The translations under genes and the position numbers were made by a program. Positions 2,931 through 10,523 of a stretch of DNA of 11,450 nt are shown here, one piece after another; the first letter of the stretch is position 1; every line of letters starts with the position of its first letter. The notes beneath the pieces were generated by a model. It ran no database searches. It was not told the origin of the DNA and was given only the letters and a program-made list of their open reading frames with translations. The stretch comes from Candidatus Altarchaeum sp. CG2_30_32_3053. Lineage in GTDB: Archaea > Altiarchaeota > Altiarchaeia > Altiarchaeales > Altiarchaeaceae. The stretch is from positions 1 through 11,450 of the forward strand of contig MNZY01000070.1 in NCBI GenBank assembly GCA_001873845.1. Reading direction: 5' to 3'.

Positions 2931-3644
2931 ATGAATTTCATCCCGATAACTTATAAAAACACAAACCTGAATATATCTTTATACAAAGGAAATACAACGA
3001 CTGAAAGCATCCCTTTTAACAAAATTTTTAAAACCGTTGTTGAGGAAAGAAGTAAAATAGAGAAGGAAATAATAAAAAATCCGTTGTTTAAATATTCTCT
3101 TGAGCCGCTTAAACCCGATAATGACTCACCAGAAATAATTAAAAATATGTGTTATGCCTCAAATCTGGCAAATGTCGGGCCAATGGCAAGCGTTGCTGGG
3201 GCAATTGCAGAAATTTTATGTGAGAAATGTATTGGACTTGGATTTGATGCTGGGTTCATTGAAAACGGGGGAGATATTGCTCTGTTCGGGGACAGGAATT
3301 TTAAGATTCAGATTTACACAAAAAATTCACCGTTTTCAGACAAATTTTTCATACCTTTAAATCCAGCAAAATTATTCCAGGACAAAATTTTAGGTATATG
3401 TACATCCTCATCTTCTATAGGTCCGTCTGTGAGTTTTGGAGACAGCGATGCGACGACGATTATAGCAAATAGTCCTGCAATCGCAGATGCATTCGCGACC
3501 TCACTTGGAAATTTAGTTAAAAACGATGAAAAGTGTCTTGAGGATGTTATTGAATTCGGAAAGAAATTTAATGTAGTAAAAGGAATTTGTATAATTGTTA
3601 AGGATAAAATCGGGATGTGGAATGTCCGGCTGGAAAAATTTTAA
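2931..3644 (+). CDS. UPF0280 family protein (ApbE superfamily, COG2122-like), function unknown.
   Basis: 'NVGPMASVAGAIAE', '...ENGGDIALFGD...', 'GICTSSSSIGPSVSFGDSDATTIIANSPAIADAFATSLGN' and a C-terminal 'IVKDKIGMWNV' match my recollection of the archaeal UPF0280/ApbE-like family signature. The start codon abuts the tandem repeat array. Only 15 bp separate its stop from the Elp3 start. Confidence 0.7.
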   Translation: MNFIPITYKNTNLNISLYKGNTTTESIPFNKIFKTVVEERSKIEKEIIKNPLFKYSLEPLKPDNDSPEIIKNMCYASNLANVGPMASVAGAIAEILCEKCIGLGFDAGFIENGGDIALFGDRNFKIQIYTKNSPFSDKFFIPLNPAKLFQDKILGICTSSSSIGPSVSFGDSDATTIIANSPAIADAFATSLGNLVKNDEKCLEDVIEFGKKFNVVKGICIIVKDKIGMWNVRLEKF

Positions 3645-5413: not shown

Positions 5414-7144
5414 TTACAGCCTCCTCAAAATATTTCCTAAAATATTCATAACATATACATTCAGTGATTTCCTGTTTCTTGGCCAGTTTAGTTCCCTGTT
5501 TTTATGAATTAATGACTTCATGGACTCATTAATCTCATCCCTTAATAAATTAATTTCCCGCTCATTGTCATTAATACCAATACCTGTTTTTGAAATTTGG
5601 GCAACCTTCTTCATAACATCTCTTGAAATTTCAACCTGTTTTTCTGTATTTTTAACATACCTGTCATCAACCATCTCATGTTTTCTTTTAATATGTGATA
5701 ATTTAACTGCTGTGTCATAAGTAAGATCAATAATATCATCAGGAGAAAGATTTTCTGTCCGATAGTTAAAAAAGTCCTTCCATGAGTATCTGTCAAAGGC
5801 ATTGTAATGTTCTTCAAGTGTCCTGTGCAAAACCACATAACCGTATCTGGCGGGATTTTCAAATGCGATGGATCCTGGGTCAAGAGTCGGGGCATATGGA
5901 GATATAAAAGGATAAACCTTATGTTCCCGTTCTCCGGAATTTTTAAATTTTTTAAATTTCCCGATAACTGAATCAATATAATCAAGTGTTCTGTAAATGC
6001 TTTTCTTACTCTGTTTTCCGAGTCCGAGCATAAAAAAAAGATCAAATTTATCGCAGTCATTGTTCAGTGCGATTTCTATGCTGTTTTCAACATCTTCATT
6101 TGTATAATTCTTTCCGGCGCAAAACCGCACATCATCAGAGGCGTCTTCCGGAGACATCTCAAGATTATAATGTGCAAATGTGCTCTTCAGAGTCACTGCA
6201 AATTCTTCTGTCAAGGGAGAAAATAACTCAAATACAACTGGCAGGTCAATCTTTTCTTTTTTTATTTTTTTAAATACCTCTTCATAATACCTTTTGCCGC
6301 CCATCCGTATGTCATTCAGAAAGAATACGGGATTTTTGATATATTCTTCATTCAGACGCAACTGCTCAATCACTTTATCCGGCTCCATAAATGCCGGCTT
6401 TTTGCGGTTGTATATTCGCTTATAGCATTCAGATGAGCCGCCGCAATTGACACAGTTATACAGGCATCCCTTTGAGGTAAGTATAGGCATTGTCGGTTCA
6501 TCAAGCCATGACCTGTAAGGCAGATTAGCGTCAATGTCCATATCCCTGATAATCAGTTTCAGCATAAATTTCGGGTCAATTACGAAATTAACAGTTTCAG
6601 GCACATTGGTTATGGGATTTGATTTGACAATATTGTTTTTTCTCCACGATAAATTCGGAATGTCTTCTTTATCGGTTTTGTTTAAATTTTCAATTAGTTT
6701 TAATAAAGGATATTCGCAGGAATCGCCTTTAAGCACATAATCAATAAACGAAAATTTAGTTAGAATTTCATCGTGATAGTATGTAGAAGTAAAGCCGCCA
6801 AATATAACTGGTGTATTCGGATGAAATTTTTTGCATATCTTTGCGATTTCAATTGCACCGTGAAGATGGGCCATCCAGTGAAGGTCTATGCAGAATGCCT
6901 CTGCATTTAGTCGTTTTATAAATTTTTCTGCATCAAATTTTTCGCTGTTTAGCATCTTCAGGGCTATATTTACAATCCTCGCCCTGTGTCCGTGCCGCTC
7001 AAGATAATGTGCCATTGATACAAATCCCATGGGATACATTTCAAACACAGGTGTTGACGGGACCGCTTCGCTCATTGCGCCTATAAATACCGGACGCTTG
7101 CGGAAGTCGTAAATGCCTGGCGGATGTAAAAATACAGTTGTCAT
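5414..7144 (-). CDS. B12(cobalamin)-binding-domain radical-SAM enzyme (class B radical-SAM family), substrate unknown.
   Basis: The N-terminal B12-binding-like domain reads 'YPMGFVSMAHYLERHGHRARIVNIA ... PVIFGGFTSTYYHDEIL ... VLKGDSCEYPLLKLIENL'. The canonical CX3CX2C radical-SAM motif is 'TSKGCLYNCVNCGG'. The protein is 576 aa. Its start codon overlaps the stop of the upstream small gene in an ATGA arrangement. Confidence 0.85.
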   Translation of the reverse strand: MTTVFLHPPGIYDFRKRPVFIGAMSEAVPSTPVFEMYPMGFVSMAHYLERHGHRARIVNIALKMLNSEKFDAEKFIKRLNAEAFCIDLHWMAHLHGAIEIAKICKKFHPNTPVIFGGFTSTYYHDEILTKFSFIDYVLKGDSCEYPLLKLIENLNKTDKEDIPNLSWRKNNIVKSNPITNVPETVNFVIDPKFMLKLIIRDMDIDANLPYRSWLDEPTMPILTSKGCLYNCVNCGGSSECYKRIYNRKKPAFMEPDKVIEQLRLNEEYIKNPVFFLNDIRMGGKRYYEEVFKKIKKEKIDLPVVFELFSPLTEEFAVTLKSTFAHYNLEMSPEDASDDVRFCAGKNYTNEDVENSIEIALNNDCDKFDLFFMLGLGKQSKKSIYRTLDYIDSVIGKFKKFKNSGEREHKVYPFISPYAPTLDPGSIAFENPARYGYVVLHRTLEEHYNAFDRYSWKDFFNYRTENLSPDDIIDLTYDTAVKLSHIKRKHEMVDDRYVKNTEKQVEISRDVMKKVAQISKTGIGINDNEREINLLRDEINESMKSLIHKNRELNWPRNRKSLNVYVMNILGNILRRL

Positions 7145-7431
7145 TTTTCAACTATCATGAATAGACATTCCATTATGCGCTCTGATTTGCATTCCGGGCA
7201 TTTTGACGGACTCTTTATCTTTTCCCTTTCTTTGAATACAAATCCGCAATTTATGCACTCTGCTGGTTTTATCATCAGTTTTCCTCTGTGAGAAATGCTT
7301 TTCTTTATGTGTTTTATGTCATCGGCAATAACTTTTTCAGGAAATTTATAACGTATAGATAATGCCCTGATACATATCCATCCATTTTTTAATTCTTCTG
7401 TTAGCCGCTGCCTTCTTGTATACTCGGTCAT
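7141..7431 (-). CDS. Small HTH-like domain fused to a C4 Zn-ribbon (COG3357-like predicted transcriptional regulator), translationally coupled to the radical-SAM gene.
   Basis: The 96-aa protein has N-terminal 'TRRQRLTEEL...IRALSIRYKFPEKVIADDIKHIKKS' (HTH-like) and C-terminal 'CINCGFVFKEREKIKSPSKCPECKSERI', a CxxC...CxxC zinc ribbon. This pattern matches my memory of the archaeal HTH and Zn-ribbon regulator family. Its stop TGA overlaps the start ATG of the downstream gene by 4 bp (ATGA). Confidence 0.6.
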   Translation of the reverse strand: MTEYTRRQRLTEELKNGWICIRALSIRYKFPEKVIADDIKHIKKSISHRGKLMIKPAECINCGFVFKEREKIKSPSKCPECKSERIMECLFMIVEK

Positions 7432-7565
7432 TTTTTATGAATCTGATAATGAACATGTCTGATAAAAATGTATAAAAATGTGGTGCTGGCCTACTAAAAT
7501 TGGGATAATTATATATTTGTTTTTTTACTAATATTTCTTTATTTATTTCTTCCTCAACGCAACCT

Positions 7566-7582
7566 GCCGCAAAAAACCCGTT
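7566..7582 (-). terminator. Putative oligo-T archaeal terminator downstream of gltX.
   Basis: A T6 run on the minus strand (A6 at 7571-7576 on the plus strand) is flanked by G/C ('cggg tttttt gcggcagg'). It lies about 30 nt after the gltX stop codon. Confidence 0.25.
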
Positions 7583-7605: not shown

Positions 7606-9093
7606 TCATCTTTGAGTCCAATAAAACTCAATTTCATTGCCCATAATCTTATCTGCCCTGCAAAATCCGAATGTCTCAAACTGTATAATGTCATTTTCCT
7701 TCAAATTCCTGCAGCCTGTTTCGCAAATACCCTTCGCAATCCTCCCGGGCATATAAATTTTTGCACCTGGGCATAAATTTTCATCCGGAAGCCATAAGAC
7801 CTTTGCAACATTAAAAAATTTCCCTTTTTTTCCCTTCTTTCCGTTAGCCACAACCATCGGACCGTGCGAGTTCTCAACATAATCAGCAATGATTTCCGTT
7901 ATGCCTTCAGCTTTTGTCAGACATTTAACCCGGACATTGCAGGTATTCATCAGCCGGATTTCATCCCCTTCTTTTAATTTTTCCGCATCGCTCTTCTGAA
8001 TTAATAAATTTATTTTGCCTTCCTTCGACACTAAATTAAATTCCCTGAATCCGTAACTGTGTTCCTTATGCAGAGGAAACTGGACATCCATATACGGAAA
8101 ATTTTCAACATTGATTTTTACCGGATCTTCAATGAAAAAATAGCGAAACGATGATTCAATAAATTTCTTATTTTCAAAATACAACGCTTCTTCGCTGAAT
8201 TCAACATCAACATCAGTTACCCCCAAATTCAACATATAATTCCTTATTGCCCGCGGATTTATTCCCCGTCGTTTTAATGCTCTTAATGTCAGCAGATTGA
8301 CATCATCCCATCCTGTAAATTTATTTTCATCAATACCTTTCTTTATCTCACTCTTGCTGATTTTTCCTTCCTGGCCAATGCTCATTATTCCGTAATGAAT
8401 GTATTCCGGCTCTTTCCATCCGAAATATTTATAAATAAATTTTTGCTTTTCCGTGTTTGTAAGATGATCTTTGCCCCTTAAAACATGCGTTATTCCGAGC
8501 AAATGGTCATCTGCTGCAACAGAAAGATTCATCAGGGGATAAACCACTAATTCTTTCTTTTTCAGCCGGGGATGATGTTCTTTTGATACCCTTAACAAAG
8601 GAAAGTCCACCAGAGAAGGATTCGGAGAATTTAAGTCCGTCTTAATTCGCACAGTCCATCCTTCCCTGGCATACATTTTGTCAAAATTTTTTAAATTTTC
8701 CGAAATTTCCATATTTCTGTGTGGGCAGGGCATTTTCTGTAATTTTAATACCTTAAATTTTTCCGGTTCGCAATTACATAAGTAAGCGTGCCCCTTTTCA
8801 ACCAGCTGTCTGGCAAAATTTTCATAAACTGGCAGGCGGTCGCTCTGAATTATCTTCATATCCCAGTCACATCCCACCCATTTTAAATCTTCTTCAATTG
8901 CAGCATAAGATTCCTCATCAACCCTGCCGGGGTCTGTGTCCTCAATCCGTAATATTAATTTTCCGCCGTATTGCCTTGAAATTTCGTCGTTTAATATTGC
9001 TGCCCTTGCGTGTCCGATGTGCAAATATCCCGATGGATTCGGTGCAAATCTGACAATAACCTTTCCTCTTTCCGCGTTTGGAATTTCAATCAT
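7606..9093 (-). CDS. gltX: Glutamyl-tRNA synthetase, archaeal/eukaryotic-type class I (GlxRS family), lacking the usual N-terminal domain.
   Basis: The HIGH motif 'FAPNPSGYLHIGHARAAIL' sits at residues about 16-34. The KMSKS-type motif is 'GKISKSE'. Conserved blocks 'ILRIEDTDPGR' and 'GWTVRIK' are present. Together these give the archaeal GluRS/GlnRS catalytic core. The protein is 495 aa. Confidence 0.9.
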   Translation of the reverse strand: MIEIPNAERGKVIVRFAPNPSGYLHIGHARAAILNDEISRQYGGKLILRIEDTDPGRVDEESYAAIEEDLKWVGCDWDMKIIQSDRLPVYENFARQLVEKGHAYLCNCEPEKFKVLKLQKMPCPHRNMEISENLKNFDKMYAREGWTVRIKTDLNSPNPSLVDFPLLRVSKEHHPRLKKKELVVYPLMNLSVAADDHLLGITHVLRGKDHLTNTEKQKFIYKYFGWKEPEYIHYGIMSIGQEGKISKSEIKKGIDENKFTGWDDVNLLTLRALKRRGINPRAIRNYMLNLGVTDVDVEFSEEALYFENKKFIESSFRYFFIEDPVKINVENFPYMDVQFPLHKEHSYGFREFNLVSKEGKINLLIQKSDAEKLKEGDEIRLMNTCNVRVKCLTKAEGITEIIADYVENSHGPMVVANGKKGKKGKFFNVAKVLWLPDENLCPGAKIYMPGRIAKGICETGCRNLKENDIIQFETFGFCRADKIMGNEIEFYWTQR

Positions 9094-10277: not shown

Positions 10278-10523
10278 ATGCCTTTAGCAGAGGTCGTTGA
10301 AATCGTCGGAAGGACAGGAATTTACGGCGAAGTAATTCAGGTTATGTGTAAAATGCTGGAAGGAAAAGAGTCGGAGAATATTTTAAGAAGAAATGTCAGA
10401 ACACCTGTAAGGGTGGGAGATATAATCTCTTTGAAAGAAATCGAAAGAGAATCAAGGCCCATAGAGACCGCCCAAAGGAAATTAATGAAACTTAAAAATA
10501 AAAATAAGAGAAAAGCAAGATGA
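10278..10523 (+). CDS. rps28e: Ribosomal protein S28e.
   Basis: 'AEVVEIVGRTGIYGEVIQVMCKMLEG...ILRRNVRTPVRVGDIISLKEIERESR' matches the S28e consensus (AEVIEIIGRTGMTGEVTQV...NV.GP.R.GDIL.L.E.EREAR). Confidence 0.85.
   Translation: MPLAEVVEIVGRTGIYGEVIQVMCKMLEGKESENILRRNVRTPVRVGDIISLKEIERESRPIETAQRKLMKLKNKNKRKAR

Follow-up and report, generated by a model that had tools for sequence, protein, structure and literature searches.

A PF0610-family gene overlapping a TIGR04190 radical-SAM gene in Candidatus Altiarchaeum likely encodes a stand-alone factor and not an obligate partner

Introduction

The PF0610 protein of Pyrococcus furiosus (PDB 2GMG; Pfam PF21476 and PF23470) consists of a three-helix winged helix followed by a four-cysteine, rubredoxin-like Zn ribbon, and its structure is reported by Wang et al. 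(2007 Biochemistry 46:752, as cited in PMC7614390). PF0610 has been listed among the wHTH transcription factors (PMC6316755), yet its function is presumed, and the family name therefore conveys a fold and not a demonstrated activity.

Among the class-B radical-SAM enzymes, GrsA/GrsB, Gmm, Cgm/Pgm and Ted modify archaeal lipids (PMC11214058; bioRxiv 10.1101/2025.10.20.683597; PMC13459092). They are built from a B12 domain, a barrel and a helical C-terminus, and no dependence on a small wHTH partner has been reported for any of them. In an Altiarchaeum-dominated geyser study, no grsA/grsB homologue was found at >50% identity (PMC13003381). The tetraether synthase Tes, or GDGT-MAS, is likewise of the radical-SAM type and has archaeal lipids as its substrates; it is present in Altiarchaeum and is encoded beside GGR in Methanosarcina (PMC8941075). 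For the radical-SAM family TIGR04190, our literature search under that name or Ta0216 found no mention.

Two kinds of described gene arrangement resemble the one analysed here. In the PqqD/RRE systems, the gene immediately before that of a radical-SAM maturase codes for a small winged-helix-like protein of ~90 aa. The other kind is the co-directional gene pair with a -4 ATGA overlap, the commonest overlap class; where such a pair does encode a complex, the close spacing belongs to the pair as such and is conserved across phyla (PMC6728339, PMC10666635). Here we describe a co-directional, ATGA-overlapping pair of a PF0610-family gene and a TIGR04190 gene from Candidatus Altiarchaeum and compare the genomic context of both families, at 80 loci each.

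Results

The overlapping gene pair

The window, that is, the whole stretch of 11,450 nt that was analysed, carries on its minus strand a 96-aa small ORF (7141-7431) and a partly overlapping 576-aa enzyme ORF (5414..7144). The features of the locus are as follows:

5414..7144, minus strand: gene for the 576-aa class-B (B12-binding) radical-SAM enzyme of the TIGR04190 (Ta0216) family, assigned from NCBIfam, Pfam, motif and AF2 model
7141..7144, minus strand: ATGA stop/start overlap of the small gene and the radical-SAM gene; the plus-strand bases TCAT read as ATGA in the coding sense, and 4 nt are shared
7141..7431, minus strand: gene for the 96-aa PF0610-family protein, assigned from Pfam, the PDB 2gmg match, invariant Cys residues, AF2 model and dN/dS
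7432..7480, minus strand: A/T-rich, promoter-like region of the small gene, predicted from the sequence
7571..7576, minus strand: T6 run, 30 nt past the GluRS stop codon
7606..9093: GluRS ORF, assigned from the ORF list and a profile match

The small ORF runs from an ATG at 7431-7429 to a TGA at 7143-7141 on the minus strand, and the two ORFs together with bases 7141-7144 bear out the reading of an earlier note on this DNA, in which the stop codon of the small gene overlaps the start codon of a B12 radical-SAM gene. Since two of the eight same-strand junctions in the window are ATGA overlaps, the second being that of S28e/L24e (10520-10523), a 4-nt overlap is nothing unusual in this stretch. 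Alignment of the junction with relatives traces the overlap to a loss of ~65 nt, namely the spacer together with the final codons at the ancestral end of the small gene (...VENK, then stop), and the ...VENK C-terminus is retained in the outgroup locus L084. On the basis of this alignment and the outgroup C-terminus, the overlap is a derived feature of the window lineage that arose via a recent spacer deletion.

The promoter-like region contains TTTTTATA and TTTTTATC boxes as putative promoter elements, located ~30-45 nt before the ATG of the small gene, and the proximal ~40 nt are conserved in the related loci L096, L098 and L087. The neighbour beyond them varies between GluRS, a divergent 611-aa gene and an IS1 transposase. 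In the window, the T6 run is a candidate archaeal terminator, which would keep the small-gene transcript apart from GluRS. Neither an Rfam family nor a tRNA was found when the whole window was scanned.

The small protein

The N-terminal part of the small protein (residues ~5-55) corresponds to a three-helix winged helix and the C-terminal part to a four-Cys, rubredoxin-like Zn ribbon. Pfam PF23470 (Zn_ribbon_PF0610) matches at 4e-11 with 42.9 bits, passing its cut-off of 26 bits, and PF21476 (PF0610-like_N) at 8.5e-7 with 29.6 bits, slightly under its 33-bit cut-off, while in phmmer residues 5-93 align to PDB 2gmg, that is, PF0610 itself, at an E-value of 4.5e-15. The identity to PF0610 is 40% over ~90 residues, with no structural difference noted. 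An exhaustive search recovered 576 PF0610-family representatives at E<=1e-3, the residues C59, C62, C78 and C81 are invariant in an alignment of 64 family members, and the dN/dS ratio among Altiarchaeum relatives is ~0.15; taken with the Pfam and 2gmg matches, these results establish the small ORF as a real gene.

The AF2 model (pLDDT 84) contains helices at residues 6-16, 21-28 and 32-48 followed by strands, and its top Foldseek match is 2gmg (TM 0.74), after which come wHTH domains of repressors, for example PurR, CzrA/SmtB and those of the MarR type. The N-terminal winged helix is thus evident from the 2gmg alignment and the model, with PF21476 itself remaining below its cut-off, and the two CxxC knuckles of a zinc beta-ribbon are present. 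We assign the small protein to the PF0610 family, which we take to be the one described by COG3357, and the HTH and Zn-ribbon architecture proposed in the earlier note stands, both through the PF23470 match and through the 2gmg fold. Judged from its modelled fold, the protein is most likely a DNA-binding transcription factor.

The radical-SAM enzyme

The assignment of the downstream gene as a B12-binding radical-SAM enzyme is likewise upheld, by two Pfam domains, the TIGR04190 profile and an invariant motif. NCBIfam TIGR04190 (B12_SAM_Ta0216) matches with 594.9 bits against a curated equivalog cut-off of 500, residues 4-530 covering profile positions 3-525 of 554, and this full-length match reveals no difference from the family. 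Pfam PF02310 (B12-binding) scores 41.7 bits (cut-off 32.1) and PF04055 (Radical_SAM) 39.2 bits (cut-off 29.5), and the CxxxCxxC motif formed by C227, C231 and C234 is invariant among 22 relatives. In the AF2 model (pLDDT 86), an N-terminal Rossmann-type B12 domain is followed by a radical-SAM barrel and a C-terminal helical region, an architecture in common with the lipid enzymes Grs, Gmm, Cgm/Pgm and Ted; the best fold matches are TsrM, TokK, MgmA, OxsB, AprD4 and CysS, and the weak NCBIfam matches include RiPP C-methyltransferases. The enzyme is a member of TIGR04190 and a predicted cobalamin radical-SAM enzyme. Its family has >4,000 relatives at E<=1e-10, found in Nitrososphaerales, Bathyarchaeia, Thermoplasmatota, Nezhaarchaeales and several bacterial phyla.

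Some relatives of the enzyme adjoin genes for GGR-family reductases or polyprenyl synthases. The orthologue in IMC4, at 62% identity, is flanked by a MenG/UbiE-like gene upstream and GGR downstream within a futalosine-menaquinone cluster, and in other Altiarchaeales one orthologue (51%) follows another radical-SAM gene and faces a polyprenyl synthase gene, and one (54%) lies beside hydrogenase and nuo genes. The position of the IMC4 orthologue beside GGR raised the idea that the enzyme is the Altiarchaeum Tes, which was rejected: the published Tes is unrelated in sequence, with a best BLASTP E-value of 0.23 between the enzyme and the 559-aa Altiarchaeum protein (PMC13003381 Data S3), and a sequence search of the enzyme against PDB chains, GDGT-MAS included, gave no match.

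Linkage across the two families

A genome scan with a 20-sequence subset of the family alignment as the query returned 555 PF0610-family relatives, of which 80 loci from 80 bacterial and archaeal species were retained, spanning Woesearchaeota, Methanosarcinales, Halorubrum, Asgard archaea, Nitrospirota, Myxococcota, Acidobacteriota and others. Both these loci and a second sample of 80 TIGR04190 metagenome loci were picked by sequence motif and best E-value, and their neighbours were taken from a crude ORF finder. No TIGR04190-like sequence was found within 6 kb of the small gene at any of the 80 PF0610-family loci, and no neighbour family recurred in more than six of them. In Pfam searches, the 73 downstream neighbours fell into 56 families and the 78 upstream neighbours into 96, with any one family common to at most five neighbours and Radical_SAM not among the recurrent ones.

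Conversely, no credible PF0610-like ORF was detected near the enzyme at the 80 TIGR04190 metagenome loci, where the positive controls were all recovered and the only two PF0610-like matches (E~0.003) were both non-adjacent. Most neighbours at these loci are housekeeping genes that come from a few clades (SelA, UshA-like, RluD); they give no hint of the substrate. Linkage of the two genes is therefore conserved in neither family. In the earlier note, the overlap was read as the sign of an obligate partner, of a chaperone or of a protein that the enzyme modifies. This reading is not supported, the families being unlinked in either direction: the homologues of the small gene are scattered independently of radical-SAM genes, which is the outcome that the note itself gave as refuting, and TIGR04190 enzymes likewise occur where the small gene is lacking.

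Altiarchaeales and the genus Ca. Altiarchaeum

In another Altiarchaeales lineage, an orthologue of the small gene with 63% identity follows an AlaX-like gene and has no radical-SAM gene nearby. Within Ca. Altiarchaeum, three of the five genus-level lineages have the two genes side by side and co-directional, at distances of -4 nt in the window, +11 nt in L096 and +58 nt in L098-L100, and the 58-nt spacer contains an A/T-rich stretch that is a putative promoter of the enzyme gene itself. With values of -4, +11 and +58 nt inside one genus, the distance does not keep to the range of -8 to +10 nt taken to mark a two-protein system. In L097 an 82% identical enzyme is encoded without the small gene upstream, and in L087-L090, which are four independent assemblies, the small gene is intact and only fragments of the enzyme gene are left beside an IS1. 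From these comparisons, the pairing appears to have arisen only within the genus and does not represent a conserved two-protein system.

For the small gene, the pairwise dN/dS between L087 and L098 is 0.53, a value suggestive of relaxed selection where the enzyme gene is broken, but this was not borne out by the lineage-specific substitutions, which in L087-L090 amount to three synonymous and two non-synonymous, equal to the lineages with an intact enzyme, all of these being very small numbers.

Discussion

The small protein is likely a stand-alone PF0610-family factor with its own promoter, and the TIGR04190 enzyme an unrelated neighbour whose gene came to overlap by deletion. The two proteins each belong to a recognized family, the families are not linked in either direction, the spacing varies and the overlap is derived. 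As envisaged here, the small protein would act as a DNA-binding transcription factor expressed from the promoter-like region directly upstream, and the enzyme gene would have come to adjoin it only in Ca. Altiarchaeum. In the window lineage, the ~65-nt deletion then took the spacer and the last small-gene codons and joined the new stop to the enzyme start. As a consequence, the enzyme is probably transcribed from the small-gene promoter by accident and probably translated by termination-reinitiation, so that its gene would be both co-transcribed and translationally coupled with the small gene; at distances above 20 nt independent translation is predicted (PMC10666635). The two proteins would in all probability form no obligate pair, and neither would be the substrate of the other. 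Subunits of complexes are enriched among gene pairs with short overlaps, which counts against this reading; of all gene pairs a short distance apart, only 30-45% code for subunits of a complex (PMC10666635).

The adjacency in three of five lineages is not an isolated case and would be consistent with a regulatory link at this locus.

Such a link would make the small protein a genus-specific regulator that binds its own promoter and so controls the downstream enzyme, the deletion having tightened a bicistronic operon. Regulators are often encoded beside their targets, the order of small gene and enzyme is retained in the window, L096 and L098-L100, conservation extends to the promoter-proximal sequence before the small gene, and the fold is that of wHTH repressors. 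We nevertheless regard this as unlikely, as the 63% orthologue in the other Altiarchaeales lineage exists without the enzyme nearby, breakage of the enzyme gene has left the small gene intact and its substitution pattern unaltered, the enzyme is encoded in L097 with no small gene upstream, the A/T-rich stretch in the relatives with the 58-nt spacer could serve as the enzyme's own promoter, and no target is conserved across the PF0610 family. A related reading, that the small protein was newly recruited in Ca. Altiarchaeum as a regulator of the enzyme or as a rubredoxin-like or substrate-presenting helper, with the spacers of 58, 11 and -4 nt recording an operon in formation and the enzyme perhaps modifying an isoprenoid quinone or lipid, appears distinctly improbable. 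Still less can be said for the small protein as an obligate accessory, be it a Zn-ribbon subunit, a rubredoxin-like electron donor or an RRE/PqqD-like substrate presenter, held at a fixed ratio by the overlap. An electron donor of this kind would have the Fe-S cluster or the cobalamin of the enzyme as its recipient. RREs are small winged-helix proteins found beside radical-SAM enzymes, and the CxxCG...CPxC knuckles of the small protein resemble those of rubredoxin. The -4 overlap predicts termination-reinitiation coupling, and pairs so coupled are enriched for complex subunits (PMC6728339, PMC10666635). We judge this role very unlikely, because the small gene is absent from all 80 TIGR04190 loci and from the four Altiarchaeales orthologue contexts, the enzyme is absent from all 80 small-gene loci, and the spacing ranges from -4 to +58 nt inside one genus, unlike that of true complex pairs. 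The only solved PF0610-family member is moreover described as a Zn and not an Fe protein (Wang et al. 2007, as cited in PMC7614390), and the solved class-B enzymes closest in fold to that of the window are each listed as a single enzyme with no subunit of this kind.

The resemblance to the PqqD/RRE systems likewise does not extend beyond size, fold class and gene order, as Pfam gives no PqqD match, the 50 best PDB fold matches include no RRE structure, there is no precursor peptide gene, and the small-protein family does not co-occur with radical-SAM genes in the 80 loci and neighbour Pfam scans; the small protein accordingly resembles neither a RiPP precursor nor an RRE that accompanies a maturase. 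Some class-B radical-SAM enzymes do methylate peptides or proteins, and MgmA and Mmp10 are among the fold matches of the enzyme, with weak NCBIfam matches to RiPP C-methyltransferases, so a RiPP-like or Mmp10-like methylation of the small protein could be envisaged. It is, however, a folded, conserved and widespread domain whose architecture shows neither a variable core nor a leader, it is found in hundreds of species, the enzyme being nearby in none of the 80 loci examined, Mmp10 ranks only as the 31st fold match (TM 0.22), and the enzyme orthologues are found among isoprenoid, quinone and respiratory genes and not among peptide genes. That the small protein is the substrate is thus extremely improbable.

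A conserved pairing, if real, would have given the first functional handle on both the PF0610-like proteins and the TIGR04190 enzymes. As the pairing is not conserved, the small gene provides no clue to the substrate of the enzyme, and the locus illustrates that a 4-nt overlap alone is weak evidence of partnership, being traceable here to a recent deletion. For the role of the enzyme, the isoprenoid, quinone and respiratory genes around its orthologues are the better guide.

Gene layout of the pair

The small gene and the enzyme gene follow each other on the minus strand and share four nucleotides, the plus-strand TCAT at 7141-7144 reading ATGA on the coding strand, where the stop of the former meets the start of the latter. 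ATGA overlaps are found at two of the eight same-strand junctions of the window, which sets the local baseline.

7431 to 7141, minus strand: small gene, 96-aa ORF (ORF call)
7144 to 5414, minus strand: enzyme gene, 576-aa ORF (ORF call)
10520-10523, plus strand: second ATGA overlap, between the S28e and L24e ribosomal protein genes

The window also carries the archaeal housekeeping genes Elp3, archaeal GluRS, EF-1beta, L7Ae, S28e, L24e and NDK, and the closest database relatives of both the small protein and the enzyme come from Candidatus Altiarchaeum/Altarchaeum hamiconexum and kin. Archaeal profiles match the GluRS (7606-9093, minus strand) only from profile position ~84-93 onwards, and the ORF permits no upstream extension; the protein is thus about 90 residues shorter at its N terminus than archaeal GluRS usually is. 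Two plus-strand ORFs are uncharacterised: a 219-aa ORF at 185-844 had no match in a Pfam scan, and a 237-aa ORF at 2931-3644, 15 nt upstream of Elp3, has only sub-cut-off matches, to 'hypothetical protein' models of the PRK04334 group in NCBIfam.

The small protein is a PF0610-family protein

The small protein scores above the gathering threshold of Pfam PF23470 (PF0610 rubredoxin-like zinc beta-ribbon) and just under that of PF21476 (PF0610-like N-terminal), and its residues 5-93 align with the solved Pyrococcus furiosus PF0610 (2gmg) at E 4.5e-15. At E<=1e-3, an exhaustive HMMER search yielded 576 representative relatives; across the 64 that were aligned, the four cysteines and two prolines (P75 and P79) never vary, and R7, L14 and F66 are almost invariant. 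In the AlphaFold2 model (pLDDT 84), three helices precede a beta ribbon; 2gmg is the top PDB match (TM 0.74), and the repressor winged-helix domains of PurR, CzrA/SmtB, MarR-type proteins and Phr come next. Among Altiarchaeum relatives dN/dS is ~0.15. Taken together, these data identify the ORF as a real PF0610-family wHTH/Zn-ribbon gene, and the HTH/Zn-ribbon guess of the earlier note is thus borne out. Several family members show weak ArsR/HTH_20 matches. In rare fusions (relatives P0183 and P0234) the PF0610-like module lies C-terminal to a GNAT acetyltransferase or a low-molecular-weight phosphatase/ArsC-type domain, an arrangement reminiscent of ArsR-type regulator fusions.

At the 5' end of the gene (window 7378-7431, minus strand), NCBI records (P0005) place the start later, at a non-ATG codon, which gives a product of 78 aa. 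That start is too late and the longer model right, since the orthologues measure 96-97 aa and a family-wide TRRQ motif occupies residues 5-8.

The enzyme and its neighbourhoods

Against NCBIfam TIGR04190, whose cut-off is 500 bits, the enzyme reaches 594.9 bits; other NCBIfam radical-SAM families match weakly only. It contains Pfam B12-binding and Radical_SAM domains with an invariant CxxxCxxC motif. The best fold matches of its model (pLDDT 86) are cobalamin radical-SAM enzymes, namely TsrM, TokK, MgmA, OxsB, AprD4 and CysS at 11-15% identity, with Mmp10 just 31st. The family exceeds 4,000 clusters at E<=1e-10 and is spread over archaea (Nitrososphaerales, Bathyarchaeia, Thermoplasmatota, Nezhaarchaeales) and bacteria including Actinomycetota, Zixibacteria, Latescibacterota and Bipolaricaulota; no mention of it was found in the literature searched. 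A tetraether synthase role was ruled out, the published Altiarchaeum Tes being an unrelated 559-aa protein.

In the Altiarchaeales IMC4 genome, the enzyme (62% identical) lies between a MenG/UbiE-like methyltransferase gene and a geranylgeranyl-reductase (GGR)-family gene, in that order, within a menaquinone cluster of the futalosine pathway that also contains UbiD, a VitK2_biosynth gene and MqnC, the last scoring above its cut-off. The 51% orthologue shares an 8-nt overlap with a 287-aa radical-SAM gene and faces a divergent IdsA-like polyprenyl synthase gene, and the enzyme relative of a Nitrososphaerales MAG is directly preceded by a GGR-like gene. Such isoprenoid-gene neighbours (L081:4292-7790 in IMC4, L183:2717-5683 in the MAG, L091:3124-6725 in another Altiarchaeales) hint at an isoprenoid quinone or lipid as a possible substrate. 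A respiratory-chain neighbourhood also recurs: the 54% Altiarchaeales orthologue (L094:5001-11763) is flanked by NiFe-hydrogenase and nuo genes, and in Thermoplasmatota (L181:1-7787) and 12-15 of the 80 metagenome loci (L101-L180) the enzyme gene and a nuoA-B-C-D-H operon point away from each other, with MobB/FeS and CCG-domain (HdrD/TfrB-like) genes downstream of the enzyme.

Origin of the overlap

In the relatives, the small gene ends in ...VENK-TAA, followed by an A/T-rich spacer and then ACAAATGAC, while the junction alignment shows GTTGAA joined to AAATGAC in the window, with ~65 nt lost between short AAAT repeats. The small gene of the outgroup L084 is not followed by the enzyme and likewise ends in ...VENK*; the ...VEK* end and the ATGA overlap of the window are therefore derived. 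About 40 nt upstream of the small-gene start are conserved genus-wide whatever the upstream neighbour, with TATA-like boxes ~30 nt from the ATG, and the small gene probably has its own promoter; the enzyme in the window lineage would have lost whatever promoter the spacer held.

Small gene and enzyme are separated by 58 nt in L098-L100 and by 11 nt in L096, and no small gene is present in the 317 nt upstream of the L097 enzyme (82% identical). In four independent assemblies (L087-L090) the small gene is intact and the enzyme broken, with frameshifted residues 1-82 downstream, residues 390-576 ~5 kb upstream and an IS1 transposase between them (L087:327-863 and 6352-6599, likewise in L088-L090; an AAA_14/DUF4143 gene lies nearby). 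Additional C-terminal enzyme fragments follow the intact copy in L096 (8265-9000). The enzyme region in Altiarchaeum is recombinationally unstable. The small gene of L087-L090 carries three synonymous and two non-synonymous lineage-specific substitutions, equal to lineages with an intact enzyme.

According to Huber et al. (PMC6728339, PMC10666635), such overlaps lead to tight termination-reinitiation coupling, the share of short-distance pairs that do not encode complex subunits ranges from 55% in Haloferax to 70% in E. coli, a distance above 20 nt predicts independent translation, and genuine pairs keep their distance as a conserved property. In contrast to the latter, the distance between small gene and enzyme varies even inside one genus.

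Linkage of the two families and possible roles of the small protein

The earlier note had proposed from the overlap that the small protein might be an obligate partner or the substrate of the enzyme. Scanning one genome for each species gave at least 555 confirmed small-family relatives, of which 80 loci were kept. Loci were sampled by motif, PS[RK]CPxC[KR]SE in the case of the small family, and by best E-value; a simple ORF finder called the neighbours, and some contigs are short. The 80 small-family loci derive from archaea (Woesearchaeota, Methanosarcinales, Halorubrum, Nanoarchaeota, Asgard archaea) and from Nitrospirota, Myxococcota/Deltaproteobacteria, Acidobacteriota, Planctomycetota, Methylomirabilota and Rokubacteria. 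None of the 80 lies within 6 kb of a TIGR04190-like sequence, and clustering of all ORFs within 4 kb gave no family in more than six loci. The nearest downstream ORFs (73) fall into 56 Pfam families and the nearest upstream ones (78) into 96, with at most five members per shared family and Radical_SAM not among the recurrent ones. Within Altiarchaeales, the 63% orthologue of the small protein is preceded by an AlaX-like gene and followed by opposite-strand genes. Conversely, a PF0610-like profile that found all positive controls detected no credible ORF within 5 kb of the enzyme at any of the 80 metagenome TIGR04190 loci.

In these samples, linkage thus fails in both directions, and the small Zn-ribbon gene does not accompany the TIGR04190 enzymes. 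This lack of co-occurrence from both sides makes it improbable that the enzyme depends on the small protein as a partner, an electron donor or an RRE, and very improbable that the small protein is its substrate. A regulatory link confined to the genus is somewhat less unlikely, because the order of small gene and enzyme is retained in three of five genus-level lineages, and is regarded as a minor possibility. Most likely the small protein is a wHTH/Zn-ribbon factor that stands alone and probably regulates transcription, and a recent deletion brought the neighbouring gene, for an uncharacterised class-B radical-SAM enzyme, under co-transcription and translational coupling with it.
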